NCBI RefSeq assembly: GCF_041886205.1
Contig: NZ_CP169029.1
Length of the DNA: 64,000 nt
Source of the DNA: Escherichia coli
GTDB taxonomy: Bacteria > Pseudomonadota > Gammaproteobacteria > Enterobacterales > Enterobacteriaceae
Reading direction: 5' to 3' (one strand)
Numbering within the stretch: the first letter of the stretch is position 1; each line of letters starts with the position of its first letter. Below, piece by piece: positions 4,231 to 41,131 of the stretch. The position numbers were made by a program, and so were the translations under genes. Under the pieces are notes generated by a model that saw nothing but the letters and a program-made list of their open reading frames with translations, made no database searches and had not been told where the DNA came from.

Positions 4231-4473
4231 ATGCCGAAGAAAAATGAGGCTCCCGCCAGCTTTGAAAAGGCGCTGAGCGAGCTGGAACAGATTGTAACCC
4301 GTCTGGAAAGTGGCGACCTGCCGCTGGAAGAGGCGCTGAACGAGTTCGAACGCGGCGTGCAGCTGGCACGTCAGGGGCAGGCCAAATTACAACAAGCTGA
4401 ACAGCGCGTACAAATTCTGCTGTCTGACAATGAAGACGCCTCTCTAACCCCTTTTACACCGGACAATGAGTAA
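4231..4473 (+). CDS. xseB: Exodeoxyribonuclease VII small subunit
   Basis: 80 aa, [22 protein letters not shown]; its stop overlaps the ispA start. Confidence 0.95.
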
Positions 4474-26196: not shown

Positions 26197-27516
26197 TTAG
26201 TGAGCGCTGGAGGTCACCTGACGACCTGCCGCGCGATCCCAGATAATGGCCAGAACCACCATCACCACTGTTGGCATTAACCACGCCAGACCTTGTTCGG
26301 CCAGCGGTAAACGCTGCGCCCAGGACGGTAAGATATCGCTGAATGCAGATGCTTTGATCCCGTCGAGAATACCAAAAAGCAGGCTGATAAACATCGGCGG
26401 AGCAATCACGCGGGACGAATTATGCCACCATGAGCGTGTAAAACTTAATACAACCAGTGCGATACACGGCGGATAAATAGCGGTCAGCACCGGTACGGAG
26501 ATCTGAATCAGCTGGCTCAAGCCGAGGTTAGACACCACCATCGAGAAGCCGCCGAGGATAAACACCAGCGTACGATAAGAGAGCGGTACGTACTGGGCAA
26601 AGAATTCTGCACAAGCACAGGTCAGGCCAACTGCCGTTACCAGGCAGGCGATGAAGATTAACGCCGCCAGCAGGAAGCTACCGCCGCCGCCAAAGGTGTG
26701 CTGAACGTAAGCATGCAGAATAGCAGCGCCGTTTGCAGACTGATCGACCAGCGACGCGCTGTCTGAACCCAGACGGAACAGCGCCAGGTACAGCAGAGTC
26801 AGACCAACACCCGCCATCAGGCCAGCCCAGACGGTATAACGGGTCAGCAGACGCGCTTCGGTAACGCCACGAGAACGCGCCGCGTTAACAATAACGATAC
26901 CAAACACCATTGCGCCCAGCGTATCCATGGTCAGATAGCCGTTAACGAAGCCGTTAGAAAACGCAGCGTTTTGATAAGCCTCAGTCGCCGTGCTGATAGA
27001 ACCCGCCGGCCAGACAATCGCGGCAACAGACAGGATGACCAGCGCGATAATTTTCAGCGGCGCAAGGAAGTTGCCCACGGTATCCAGCAGCTTGCCCGGA
27101 TAGAGCGAAACCAGAATAACGATAGCGAAATAGACCAGGCTGTAGATAAACAGCGGCAGCGCGGAATCACCAGTCAGCGGCGCAATCCCCACTTCAAAAG
27201 AAACGGTAGCTGTACGCGGCGTAGCGAAAAGCGGCCCCACCGCCAGGTAACAAACCGTTGCCAGCAGTACGCCAGCGACTTTACCGATTGGCGTGCTGAG
27301 GCTGTCAACACCGCCGCCAACTTTTGCCAGCGCCACTACCGTTAATACCGGCAGACCAACGGCAGTAATGAGGAAGCCGAATGCCGCAGTCCAAACGTGT
27401 TCGCCTGCCTGTAAGCCGACCATTGGAGGGAAAATAATGTTACCTGCGCCGACGAACAACGCAAATGTCATAAAGCCCAGAGCGATGATATCGCGCGATC
27501 TTAATTGATGGGTCAT
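26197..27516 (-). CDS. brnQ: Branched-chain amino acid transport system II carrier
   Basis: 439 aa, [31 protein letters not shown]. Confidence 0.94.
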
Positions 27517-27866
27517 AAATCATACTGCCTGTGGATGTGGTGTTGTAACGTTAAATTTTTGTGCCAATCCCTGGGGATGATACAGCGGTATATTTAAACA
27601 ATTTTAGCGGGAAATACTCCCAACCAGGCGCGGCGAAGAATAGTTTTTCGATTTACCGCGTGAATGCAGTCAGTATGACAGCACCTGAAGCGCAATTTAA
27701 ACGCTTATAACGTTTTAAAGCAAGGAGGGATCTAAAAACCAGAGGTATATAGCGATAAGAAATCACCAACCAGTATAAAACACTATTTCCGTGAAAAAGA
27801 CATGGCTAATCATGCGAACAAAAAATCACCAACCGTTGTAAAATCTAACGCCCGTATTTTGACTGC

Positions 27867-27897
27867 AAAGAAAATAAGCCAGCATTGGCTGGCTTAT
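27867..27897 (-). terminator. Rho-independent terminator downstream of phoR
   Basis: On the minus strand ATAAGCCAGCcaatGCTGGCTTAT (perfect 10-bp stem) is followed by UUUUCUUU, about 25 nt after the phoR stop. Confidence 0.75.
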
Positions 27898-27922
27898 GGC
27901 AATAAAAGATGACAAAGGCGGA

Positions 27923-29218
27923 TTAATCGCTGTTTTTGGCAATTAAACGTTCCGGGATAACAAAGCTGAAACGTGTTCCTTTTCCGACTGTACTCTCAAT
28001 ATTCAGGCGACTTTCGTGATGATTCACCGCATGTTTCACGATCGCTAACCCTAATCCGCTACCGCCGGTTTGCCGGGAACGCGCTTTATCAACGCGATAA
28101 AAACGCTCGGTCAGGCGCGGAATATGCTCCGGTGCAATGCCCGGTCCGTTATCTTCAACGCTAAATTCGGCACCGTGCGGCACTCGCTGCCAGCGTACGG
28201 TGATATGCGTGCCTTCCGGCGTATGATTCACGGCGTTATAGACCAGGTTCGAAATCGCACTGCGTAGCTGATCTTCGTTGCCAGACACCTTGAGGCCGTT
28301 ATCTATCTCAAAGGTAAATGTCTGTTTTTTCTGACTCAGAGTCTGAGCCTCGCGCTCAACAACGCGCAGCATCATCGGCACATCAACCTTTTCATTGAGC
28401 AAATGCGTCGGCGCGGCTTCTATTTTCGACAGCGTCAGCAATTGCTTCACCAGCCCTTCCATCCGCTGGGTCTGCTCGCGCATGGTGTGCAACGCTTTTT
28501 CACGTACCGCGCCTTCCAGCGGTTGCTCATCCATCATCTCGAGGTAACCCTGTAACACGGTCAATGGCGTACGTAACTCATGGCTCACGTTGGCAAAAAA
28601 GTTACGCCGCGCCCCTTCCAGTTGATGCATTTGCGTGACATCACGCGCCACCATCAGCAACTGTTTGTGGGTATAAGGCATGACGCGAATTTCCAGATGC
28701 CGCCCGGTGTTGAGCACCAGATTAAGCGGGCGAGAAAAATCACGCGTTTTCAGATATTGCGTAAACTCCGGGTAACGCAGCAGGTTAAGGATGTTCTGCC
28801 CGTTATCTTCCGGCCAGCGCAAACCAAGAATTTGTTGCGCCAGACCGTTACACCAGAAAATACCGCCCTCTTCCGTGGTCAGCACCACCGCGTCGGGCAG
28901 CGACTCCGCGCCGCTACGAAAGCGTTTAATCAGATTGCCCAGTTCACGGCGGCGTTTTTTATTTCGCAGCTGCATCTGGTGTAAGCCGTATAGTAGCGGT
29001 TCCCAGCTACCACGCCCCGGTGGCGGGGTCATACTGCGATCCACCCACAGCCACCATGAAAGGCGCAATAAATTCCAGAAATGCCAGATAAGCAGTCCTG
29101 TTACCGATGCCAGCAAAAACCAGGGCAGGTAACCAAAAAATGCACCCAGGATGAAAGCCGGGAGGCAGCAAAGTAGCAGCTCCAGCACCAGCCTTTTCCA
29201 CGACAGCCGTTCCAGCAC
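27923..29218 (-). CDS. phoR: Phosphate regulon sensor histidine kinase
   Basis: 431 aa; H-box ([13 protein letters not shown]) and HATPase motifs; 5' end lies close to the phoB stop. Confidence 0.95.
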
Positions 29219-29275: not shown

Positions 29276-29965
29276 TTAAAAGCGGGTTGAAAAACGATAT
29301 CCTGTACCGCGCACGGTCTGCACCATGCGGTCATGCCCGCCGGGCTCCAGTGCTTTACGCAGGCGACGAATGTGGACATCGACCGTGCGGTCTTCCACAT
29401 ACACGTTAGTTCCCCAGACGTGGTTTAACAGCTGCTCGCGGCTGTACACGCGCTCAGGATGCGTCATAAAAAAGTGCAGCAGTTTAAATTCTGTCGGCCC
29501 CATCTCCAGCGGCTCTTCGCCCGCCATCACCCGGTGAGATGTCGGGTCGAGACTTAATCCCTGCATCTCAATCACCTCTTCCACCGCCATTGGCGAAATA
29601 CGGCGCATTACTGCTTTGATTCGCGCCACCAGCTCCTTCGGCGAAAACGGCTTGGTGATATAGTCATCCGCACCGGTTTCAAGGCCGCGCACGCGATCTT
29701 CTTCTTCCCCTCTGGCGGTCAACATCACCACTGGAATATCCCGGGTCATCGACTCGCGCTTGAGGTGTTTGATGAACTGGATACCGGAGCCGCCAGGTAA
29801 CATCCAGTCAAGGAGAATTAAATCCGGCCAGGGTTCATTCAGTTGATTCACAGCACTGTCATAATCTTCCGCTTCGACCGGCTGAAAGCCATTTTGTTCG
29901 AGCACGAAGCAGACCATTTCGCGAATTGGAGCTTCATCTTCTACGACCAGAATACGTCTCGCCAT
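29276..29965 (-). CDS. phoB: Phosphate regulon response regulator
   Basis: 229 aa, [38 protein letters not shown]..., OmpR-type winged helix. Confidence 0.96.
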
Positions 29966-30018: not shown

Positions 30019-30047
30019 CGTCAGATTTATGACAGATTTATGAAAAG
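30019..30047 (-). promoter_or_regulatory. Pho box (PhoB binding site) of the phoBR promoter
   Basis: Minus strand reads CTTTTCATAAATCTGTCATAAATCTGACG (direct 7-bp repeats at 11-bp periodicity), about 55-80 bp upstream of the phoB ATG. Confidence 0.8.
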
Positions 30048-37971: not shown

Positions 37972-38427
37972 TTATTCGCTACGGCGGGCAATAATTTTTA
38001 GCGCAGCAATATTATGCGTTTTACGCCGTAACTGATCTAATCGCCTCATCCCTATTCGCCTGTCAGCAGCACGCAGAATATTCACTAACCCCCATTTATC
38101 GCTGGTAAATTGTTTTGTTAACAGCTCCGCTTTTGGGGTATCAATATATTCACGCAATAAATCAGAAATTGAACAAATATCCGTCAGGTAAGGATACCAG
38201 CAAGTTTCACCGTGAAAATTACGCACTCCACCGTTACCTGCAATAAAGTCTTTCGGGTAATCCCAGATCACGTTTTTATCCAACGTGATCCAATAACGCG
38301 GTAAATCGGTGCTTCCACCATTTTGGCTGCGCATGGGATAACGGGTACAGTGAATTTGCAGGTTGATCGTTGGCGTCAGTAAGTCATAGATCTCCCGCTG
38401 TAACTTGCTCCATGGGCGCTGTGTCAT
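37972..38427 (-). CDS. Hypothetical 151-aa protein, translationally coupled to the upstream 762-aa gene (possibly related to K-12 ykiA; uncertain)
   Basis: ATGA start/stop overlap with the upstream ORF; GAGG sits 7 nt upstream of the ATG; no signal peptide; AT-rich. Confidence 0.7.
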
Positions 38428-40712
38428 TGTTTTTCCTCAAGCCGGTGACGCGCTTCACTGCGAATTTTCCGCGTTGCCCCGGTTTTCACTAAATCACGTA
38501 ACAGCGAAAGATCGGGTTGTTCGACAAATAAGAGTAATGATGGATCCTCTTTTAACCACGCCGTTTTCACATCGGCAGCCAGCTGTGGATTATTAATAGC
38601 CAGCGACCGATCCTGAGGCTCAGTCAATGTCGTTAACAACGACGCCGGGGTATGTGCGTTGCGCAATGCCGTTTGGCGCAAATGATCATTGCGACTTTGC
38701 AGCAATGCACGCCACCATTCATCATCTGATTTATCTTTTATCGTAGCCAGTTCCGCAACAATATCGCTATCCTCACTGTTCCAGCGGTGTAATCCTCTTT
38801 CACTTTGCCTACGGGTGCTATTTTTCATACTGACAACAGCCAGCGCCCAGTCAGAGTTGAAGCGATACTGTTGATCGAGTTTGTTGATAATTCCGGTAGG
38901 TAATCCTTTATTATCAAATAATTGGTTACGCATTCGATAGCGGTATTCAGCGGGTAAATAAATCAGTAAATCAATGGCATTATTTAACATCTCTTCGTCA
39001 ACAACACCATTATCAATCAGCGCCAGCTGTACTTCGTAGGCTTGCTCTTGATCTTCTTGCCGTTTGCTCATCATTAAATTTAATGTGCGTTGCCATAACT
39101 GTTTCTTATATTCCAGCGGCAATAATTTATCGCGTGCCAGCTCATTCCAGACGGTAGTAACATCATGCTGAGTCAGTAGATAACTAATCACTTCCGTCGA
39201 TGCCAGATAACGCACACCTTCGCGTAAATTGTGCACATCTTCTTTTGCCAGAGACAGTTGACGCATCTCTGGCAACGCTATCAATAACGCCTTAACGATA
39301 TTTTTATTTTCTTTATTATCCAGATACATTTGTTCTGCGATACGTTCAATATCCTCTGTACGCAGGGTTGCTGACAGTTGGGTAATTTTTAGTTCAGTAA
39401 GCGTCCGGGCTAATGCTTCACGAACTTTCAGTGATTTATCTTTACTCAACTTCACAGCTTGTTGTGCGGTTAAATCTGCTCCGGTAATTCTTTCACGTAA
39501 CTCCGGGTCTTCGTTATTTATCAACTCATCGGTCACTGCAGTCGGAACCAGCCAGGCGTAATCGTAATGGCTGAGTAATGTCTTGCGCACACTGAGAAAG
39601 GGGCTATGACTTAACGACGCAACAATATCAGGAGAAAGATTATCCTGTCTGGCCTGCTCCAGCTGTACGCTCTCTACGGGTACAGACATTAATTTTTTAT
39701 TCACATCGGCGGAAATATTACTGTTTTTAACCAGCCCTCTGGCAACAGCCTCATCTTTAATTAATTCATCGGTAAGCAAATGCATCTGTTGAGCGGGCCA
39801 GGACTGCGCCATCGATTCACGCGTCTGGTCATCGGGGTGCTGTAACAGTTGCAGCATAACGGCGGGTGATAAACTCTCTTTATAGGTCAGAAAACGTGCC
39901 ACCAGTGGATCTTGATGCTTTATTTTATCTGCAGGGAAATTATCGAGTTTACCCGTTTCAATCCATTTTAATTTCTCATTAATTTCAGGAGCGGCTTTAT
40001 CGCGAAAAAGAGGTAAACCCTGAATGATGTTGTCTGCGACGCTATCATAGTCAGGATACGCATTGGAAATATTATCGGTTTCGATTTCAGTGTAATCATA
40101 AAGATCGGCAGTCACCAGTGAATAGGCTTTTTGAATATTCTCATCCCAGTTATATCCTTCACCACTTTCATCTTCATTGATATAAAATTCAGCTTTGATG
40201 ACCTCAAATTGCGTTGCTTTATCGGAAACAATAATGCCTCGCGCGCTAATTCCCTTCATTACTTCAAAGTTATGATCATTGTAATCAGCATAAACTAAAC
40301 CTTTCGCTGTCATCTGTCCTTTGACATACGCGAAATCATGATTAATAAAGTTATCGACAATAACATTACCTAATACAATCAGATGACCATTACCTGACAG
40401 ATAATCATCATAATCGCCGGAAATCGTTAAATTACCGTTCACCACCAGTTTATTTTGATTGCTGAAGTTAGCGGGTAATGATAGGTCACCATTATGATAA
40501 TACCAGCGGATATTATCTTTTAGCATATAAGCAGCTTCCATACTATCGTCGGTTGCCGCTTTAACCACGTTGCGCTCATCTGCCGTCATAAGATGAAAGT
40601 CAGAGGTGATAAGTTCCTCGCTACTGATCCACTCTGTGGCACATGCATTGCCAGTCATAAAAAATACGACCATCCAGATGACCAATATATTAATTCTATT
40701 CATAATCTTCAC
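38424..40712 (-). CDS. Hypothetical secreted/periplasmic repeat protein (762 aa from GTG 40712, or 759 aa from ATG 40703) with a Sec signal peptide and HEAT/PBS-lyase-like helical repeats
   Basis: N-terminus M(K)[26 protein letters not shown] has n/h/c regions and an AxA cleavage site; the C-terminal two-thirds has recurring D-P-x-(L/V)R ... A helical-repeat-like segments; AT-rich. Confidence 0.75.
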
Positions 40713-40811
40713 TGATATTTATATCAACCTTGATGAATTATGAATATATCGGAAATTGAAAAAATCGCAGCAAAGGAAATATTATTATAGGTTAAAGAGA
40801 GGATATTTCAG

Positions 40812-40840
40812 AAAAATGCCCTCCCGTTCAAGGGGAAGGC
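40812..40840 (-). terminator. Rho-independent terminator downstream of ppnP
   Basis: On the minus strand GCCTTCCCcttgaacGGGAGGGC is followed by AUUUUU, 7 nt after the ppnP stop. Confidence 0.65.
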
Positions 40841-40846
40841 GAGGAA

Positions 40847-41131
40847 TTACAGATAGCGGCACAGATAAGAGGTGGGTTCGGCAACTTGCAGATGAAACTC
40901 GCTGTGACCGGGAACATTAAACACCGAACCGGCTTCATACACTTGCCAGTCGGTCGCGTCAGGCAGTAACACATTCAGCGCGCCACTGATTACCGTCATC
41001 TCTTCCGGCTCAGCGGTGCTGAAGGTGTATTCGCCTTCAACCATAACACCCACGCTGGCGCGACCAGTGCTGCTGCTGGAAAAGCCGATTGATTTCACTT
41101 TGCCGGAAAAGTACTCATTACTTTGAAGCAT
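40847..41131 (-). CDS. ppnP: Pyrimidine/purine nucleoside phosphorylase PpnP (YaiE)
   Basis: 94 aa, [30 protein letters not shown]... Confidence 0.94.

Follow-up and report, generated by a model that had tools for sequence, protein, structure and literature searches.

Several upstream regions of E. coli, including those of ilvIH, pap and livJ/livK, contain multiple sites for Lrp. In such multi-site arrays the sites are typically 31–33 bp apart, and the DNA wraps an Lrp oligomer. We analysed a stretch of 64,000 nucleotides of E. coli DNA (contig NZ_CP169029.1), hereafter the window, in which an initial annotation had pointed out a direct repeat upstream of brnQ. This gene encodes a low-affinity branched-chain amino acid carrier, and little has been documented of its transcriptional control. 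Like the multi-site regions, this upstream region is AT-rich, belongs to an amino-acid-related gene, is bound by Lrp in vitro and carries several degenerate matches to the Lrp consensus (YAGHAWATTWTDCTR) about three helical turns apart. Unlike them, it has weak matches (10–13 of 15 positions) whose phasing is not statistically significant, and the 12-mer that catches the eye does not belong to the consensus. Binding in vitro makes the brnQ spacer, in part, a candidate member of this class.

Two other kinds of repeat bear comparison. As in systems where short repeats are substrates for slippage or recombination, E. coli strain A39 has lost exactly one 63-bp period and keeps a single hybrid copy; unlike in those systems, the deletion is found in just 1 of 5424 genomes. 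The repeat resembles the REP/BIME and ERIC families in being intergenic and adjoining a terminator, but the brnQ stretch occurs at a single place per genome, matches no Rfam family and has no palindromic REP structure. Lrp binding to the spacer (PMC5320599) and GcvB control of brnQ (PMC9299463) have already been published, and the new details reported here are small ones: the repeat, its decay outside Escherichia, a parallel substitution and the A39 deletion. The stakes are correspondingly small, at most a detail of how Lrp might dock upstream of brnQ.

Position and geometry of the direct repeat

The minus strand of the window carries phoB (29276–29965), phoR (27923–29218), brnQ (26197–27516) and proY. 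The spacer between phoR and brnQ is 406 bp long, was found in 5424 of 5426 complete E. coli genomes and has no RefSeq annotation in the sampled E. coli genomes. A single brnQ transcription start site was mapped by Kim et al. 2012 (PMC3415461, supplementary file 2) at NC_000913.2 position 418,645, giving a 5'UTR of 170 nt, and the sequence from -50 to +1 was given in that study as TTTAGATCCCTCCTTGCTTTAAAACGTTATAAGCGTTTAAATTGCGCTTCA. This start site converts to window position 27686, and we read the -35 and -10 hexamers off the window sequence. The spacer has the following features.

27874–27897, minus strand: terminator-like hairpin of phoR followed by a T run
27820–27843: distal repeat copy, AAAAAATCACCAACCGTTGTAAAA on the plus strand, -134 to -157 from the brnQ start site
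27757–27780: promoter-proximal repeat copy, AAGAAATCACCAACCAGTATAAAA on the plus strand, -71 to -94 from the brnQ start site
27814–27848, minus strand: extended distal unit, TTAGATTTTACAACGGTTGGTGATTTTTTGTTCGC in the brnQ sense
27751–27785, minus strand: extended proximal unit, TAGTGTTTTATACTGGTTGGTGATTTCTTATCGCT in the brnQ sense
27686–27723, minus strand: brnQ core promoter, with -35 TTGCTT at 27718–27723, -10 TAAATT at 27694–27699 and the start-site A at 27686

The distances of the two copies from the start site follow from its position at 27686. Both copies lie between the phoR terminator and the brnQ core promoter, a placement that the initial annotation had right. In one E. coli genome (NZ_CP136025.1) the spacer matched at two places, the better match covering only 88% of it, which suggests an insertion near the phoR terminator at about window position 27872. 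One spacer copy in the E. coli search sits on a plasmid record.

The two strings named in the initial annotation are both present where it put them, and they do form a direct repeat. Its description of them as near-identical was generous, since the noted 23-mers match at 18 of 23 positions. In the best ungapped register (27757–27780 against 27820–27843) we found 20 of 24 positions identical with a start-to-start distance of 63 bp, or 6.0 turns of 10.5 bp, which agrees with the reported spacing of ~63 bp and about six helical turns. The copies have in common an exact 12-mer, AAATCACCAACC (GGTTGGTGATTT in the brnQ sense), at 27760–27771 and 27823–27834. When one or two small gaps are allowed, the similarity extends over units of ~35 nt (27751–27785 against 27814–27848), with 27 matches in 37 aligned columns. 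There is no in-register similarity outside these units, so the repeat is not a 63-bp tandem duplication; this candidate was rejected because the two 63-bp periods are unrelated beyond the ~35-nt units.

Repeats of this quality are rare in shuffled sequence. Dinucleotide shuffles of the 64-kb window gave a mean of 0.02 such pairs, compared with three loci observed. When the 406-bp spacer was shuffled, 0.04% of trials yielded a pair with at least 20 of 24 identities and 0.34% an exact 12-mer repeat. Simple scaling to a 5-Mb genome predicts ~1–2 such pairs by chance, so the repeat is unusual locally and not extraordinary genome-wide. A second 24-nt direct repeat in the window, at 4264–4350 (GAAAAGGCGCTGAGCGAGCTGGAA and GAAGAGGCGCTGAACGAGTTCGAA), also has 20 of 24 identities and a 63-bp spacing; it is probably a coding repeat.

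Dispersed repeats and known RNA families were also considered and rejected, since the 121-nt stretch is found at one place per genome in the 5424 genomes and has no Rfam match. An Rfam scan of 27300–28100 at E<=10 returned only sub-threshold hits, all of them on the phoR terminator.

Conservation across genera and variation within E. coli

The brnQ upstream regions of 80 other Enterobacteriaceae species were fetched and aligned. The strongly conserved parts are the core promoter with the adjoining GGTTTTTAGATCCC, most of the 5'UTR, and a block of 25 nt that lies between the two copies.

27801–27825: near-invariant 25-nt block, TTTTTTGTTCGCATGATTAGCCATG in the brnQ sense, -115 to -139 from the brnQ start site

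The distance from this block to the brnQ ATG is fixed, at 285–290 bp in most species. The block is not AT-rich, and it holds an 11/15 match to the Lrp consensus at 27803–27817. The A/T run of the distal copy overlaps its edge. A by-eye comparison of the block with consensus sequences for CRP, NtrC, sigma-54, PhoP, IHF, Fur, ArcA, TorR, MarA/SoxS and FadR gave no convincing match, and the same comparison of the 12-mer core gave none either. A further invariant element is the near-palindrome TTTAAAACGTTATAAGCGTTTAAA at 27696–27719, which spans the gap between the brnQ -35 and -10 hexamers. Its conservation beyond the need of the hexamers suggests an operator that may overlap the core promoter.

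The repeat itself is not conserved in this way. Few stretches of the spacer are as poorly conserved as the proximal core, where the E. coli base is present in 0–60% of the 80 species; in the distal copy, conservation is confined to the part where the T run passes into the 25-nt block. The two copies match at 20 of 24 positions in this E. coli, 17 of 24 in four other Escherichia species and 10–14 of 24 in Citrobacter; the median over the 80 species is 10 of 24, about the background for T-rich DNA. The 12-mer core differs in every other Escherichia species examined. The initial annotation had proposed paired regulator binding sites and had named conservation in relatives as a check; we found that the paired similarity decays outside E. 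coli, and among the 80 aligned upstream regions there was no conserved pair of like sites outside Escherichia. The repeat is restricted to Escherichia and lies inside the upstream region of a single brnQ promoter.

Within E. coli, 35 of 60 evenly spaced sampled genomes were identical to the window over 27740–27860, and the others had 1–3 differences. Alignment of nine strains revealed four variable positions in the distal copy (27826, 27828, 27833 and 27835) and two in the proximal one (27765 and 27771). K-12 carries the 27833 C>T change, and its cores therefore match at 11 of 12 positions. The first six strains have 14 SNPs in the spacer, 5 of them inside the 48 repeat bases (binomial P = 0.018), the opposite of what is expected under purifying selection on an operator.

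In one haplotype the two copies share an A>G substitution at corresponding positions, 27765 and 27828. A sequencing error can be dismissed, since this haplotype recurs, allowing up to one mismatch over 121 nt, in ~146 genomes, strain 042 included. A rough estimate puts the parallel change at 0.002–0.01 as a coincidence. This hints at copy-to-copy correction as the simplest explanation, with co-selection as the alternative. Gene conversion between the copies is perhaps at work, on the strength of this one parallel substitution, which would then illustrate, in a small way, how repeats this short might undergo micro-conversion.

A natural deletion of the region was also found.

27760–27822: 63 bp absent from E. 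coli strain A39 (NZ_CP028737.1), with the copies joined into one hybrid

This deletion is exactly one 63-bp period long; with it A39 loses both the conserved block and the best Lrp-like site but keeps an intact brnQ. A39 was the sole case among the 5424 genomes, which indicates that the repeat is not a contingency or phase-variation locus. The sole demonstrated consequence of the 12-mer, as read from this genome sequence, is to have served as a substrate for a 63-bp deletion by slippage or recombination. Because the 12-mer core is specific to Escherichia, is variable and could be dispensed with in one natural isolate, the region behaves as ordinary promoter-upstream DNA. A39 provides a natural deletion allele for probing Lrp at brnQ.

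Lrp binding to the spacer in vitro and the weighing of explanations

In a genomic SELEX (gSELEX) screen with purified Lrp, Shimada et al. 2015 (PMC5320599, Table S1) recorded a peak at 418,534 in the spacer between phoR and brnQ, one of 314 sites in all for a protein with a preference for AT-rich DNA. The selection was carried out in vitro with no effector, and its resolution is ~100–150 bp (60-mer probes every 105 bp, fragments of 200–300 bp). We checked the coordinate conversion on a W3110 record, where window positions 27740–27860 correspond to 418,591–418,471. The peak converts to window position 27797, only a few bases from the point halfway between the copies. Lrp thus physically binds the spacer, as found by published gSELEX in vitro (PMC5320599).

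We then scored the 15 positions of the Lrp SELEX consensus along the upstream region and obtained the following maxima.

27740–27754, minus strand: promoter-proximal Lrp-like position, 10/15 in E. coli, centre 27747, 31 bp from the site centred at 27778
27771–27785, minus strand: best Lrp-consensus-like site, TAGTGTTTTATACTG, 13/15, centre 27778, which overlaps the proximal copy at its AT-rich end
27803–27817: Lrp-like match in the conserved block, 11/15, centre 27810
27836–27850, minus strand: weaker Lrp-like match, CGTTAGATTTTACAA, 11/15, centre 27843, at the AT-rich end of the distal copy
centre 27874: Lrp-score maximum, 10/15

These five maxima are 31–33 bp apart. A score of 13/15 is reached at only nine positions in the 64-kb window; the IUPAC consensus is nevertheless low in information, and at up to three mismatches it has 94 matches in the whole window compared with 81 expected. 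At the aligned positions of 27747 and 27778, scores of at least 12/15 were found in 59 and 27 of the 80 species, respectively, and the mean score over the 80 species peaks at 27747, 27778 and 27810, which are 31–32 bp apart. In a control with permuted consensus sequences, P was 0.09 for the count at the top position and 0.026 for that at the second, and a periodogram of the score profile gave no significant period of 30–34 bp (P ~0.19). Statistical support for an Lrp lattice is weak. The 12-mer core lies outside the consensus matches.

We looked for signs of Lrp control of brnQ in published data. No in vivo Lrp binding at brnQ and no lrp-dependent brnQ expression was found in the retrievable literature, and brnQ is absent from the Ziegler 2023 supplements. 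In the PPTP-seq matrix the brnQ-proY row stands at ~3.5, level with a neighbouring row that has many N/A values. In an RNA-seq table (PMC7373191) brnQ was unchanged after cystine addition while the Lrp-controlled liv genes fell 3–7 fold.

Two readings of the repeat can be set aside with some assurance. The first would make it part of a coding sequence: a 36-aa ATG ORF on the plus strand (27802–27912), antisense to brnQ, has both copies in its frame, which would encode the repeated peptide KKSPTSIK / KKSPTVVK, and its start, MANHANKK, coincides with the conserved block. Against this, the proximal copy is upstream of the ATG and there is no alternative start after the stop at 27733–27735, across species the ORF may be as short as 8 aa or as long as 138 aa, the start codon is replaced by CCG, ACG, CTG or CCC in 12 species, and the sampled E. 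coli genomes carry no RefSeq annotation there. Moreover, within the block it is the third codon positions that are best conserved, a pattern contrary to coding constraint, which places the constraint on the DNA and not on a peptide. With neither start nor length conserved and no codon-like substitution, we rejected a small protein gene and hold the repeated-peptide reading to be extremely unlikely. The initial annotation had also offered a duplicated promoter element, so that each copy would be part of its own brnQ promoter. Although the copies are in tandem and upstream of brnQ, a consensus scan of 27400–28000 found no sigma-70-like hexamer pair, and the single mapped start site at 27686, 71 bp downstream of the nearer copy, has its -35 and -10 hexamers in a separate invariant block. 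The single start site and the lack of promoter-like hexamers exclude the duplicated promoter as far as these data go, and we give it hardly any credence.

The readings that deserve more weight differ in the part they give to Lrp and to the 12-mer. Lrp-type control, as suggested in the initial annotation, gains from the selection of the region by Lrp in vitro and from the 13/15 and 11/15 matches at the AT-rich ends of the copies; what did not stand is a part in it for the identical 12-mer, which is outside the matches, poorly conserved, polymorphic and lost in A39. If the 12-mers were nonetheless paired operators on the same helical face, at which one regulator (Lrp or another) loops or cooperates, they would be an Escherichia-specific innovation. 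The distance of 6.0 turns of 10.5 bp and the binding of Lrp in vitro are what such operators would lead one to expect, and co-selection could have put the same derived base in both copies in one lineage. We consider this unlikely, however: the core is outside the Lrp-consensus matches, it differs in all other Escherichia species examined, nine strains show variation in its region at four positions of the distal copy and two of the proximal one, and in K-12 the cores match at only 11 of 12 positions. Near matches to the 12-mer number 21 in the window compared with 5.7 expected, but of the ten that fall in an annotated 40-kb stretch nine are within genes, on either strand, and not in promoters. 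This probably reflects coding composition and not regulation, and the 12-mer was rejected as a recurrent regulatory motif. Equally improbable, in our judgement, is concerted evolution of the copies through short-patch correction, combined with a role as paired cooperative regulator sites peculiar to Escherichia; were it so, lineage-specific control of brnQ would have been laid over the conserved promoter, the upstream block and GcvB control.

A neutral origin is a good deal harder to dismiss, and we regard it as a real possibility, though not a probable one. The repeat would then be a chance likeness of two T-rich stretches, Lrp selection would reflect AT-richness, and there would be no regulatory role. 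Such an origin would sit well with a core that is among the least conserved bases, pair similarity at background outside Escherichia, repeats rich in E. coli SNPs, a natural 63-bp deletion tolerated with brnQ intact, a chance expectation of ~1–2 such repeats per genome and the weak lattice statistics. It sits less well with the 0.04% of shuffled spacers that reach 20/24, the gSELEX peak midway between the copies, the recurrence of Lrp-like matches in many genera at corresponding alignment positions and the improbability of the parallel A>G change as coincidence.

The reading that we prefer, and to which we give about even credence, is that the repeat represents two of several degenerate Lrp contact modules in a lattice of ~32 bp upstream of the brnQ promoter, with the 12-mer as a passenger. 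Each unit, read in the brnQ sense, begins with an AT-rich segment resembling the Lrp consensus, and these segments, together with the middle site (27810) and the promoter-proximal site (27747), would form a lattice with steps of 31–33 bp, of which the 63-bp spacing would span two. Contacts of low specificity between Lrp and such bases may tune brnQ transcription, up or down. The 12-mer is probably not a recognition element; its identity between the copies in E. coli may stem from recent shared history, perhaps with occasional copy-to-copy correction.

Other features of the brnQ leader and of the window

An invariant CA-rich stretch, CAACACCACATCCACAGGC at 27527–27545, lies just upstream of the brnQ start codon and has the sequence of a GcvB R1 seed-type target. 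That brnQ is a GcvB target was verified in Salmonella and is conserved in E. coli (PMC9299463). The brnQ 5'UTR also contains TGGCAC-N5-TTTA (27552–27566), a perfect sigma-54 -24 element without the -12 GC, which is not conserved in Citrobacter or Enterobacter. A gSELEX peak for RpoN plus NtrC at 418,832 (PMC8743547) converts to about window position 27499. The 5' end of the 5'UTR (27667–27678) is complementary over 12 nt (92%) to 27520–27531, just before the AUG. The minimum free energy fold of the 5'UTR contains this pairing, yet it is no better than the folds of shuffled sequences (z = -0.59).

Elsewhere in the window, an array with a 12-bp period, CGCAATTTTTTC, runs for ~7 copies over 21662–21757 within a 489-aa hypothetical gene between acpH and malZ. 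In K-12 there is presumably no gene at this place, and the 489-aa gene is probably an accessory gene. Between phoB and sbcD we found a perfect 11-bp tandem, CAGATTTATGA in two copies at 30022–30043, whose reverse complement we take to be the Pho box of the phoB promoter. Window positions 38000–41000 correspond to a stretch of the closest annotated relative (L090, 30456–33187) in which an SF0329-family gene and a 759-aa DUF2773 gene lie between rdgC and ppnP.
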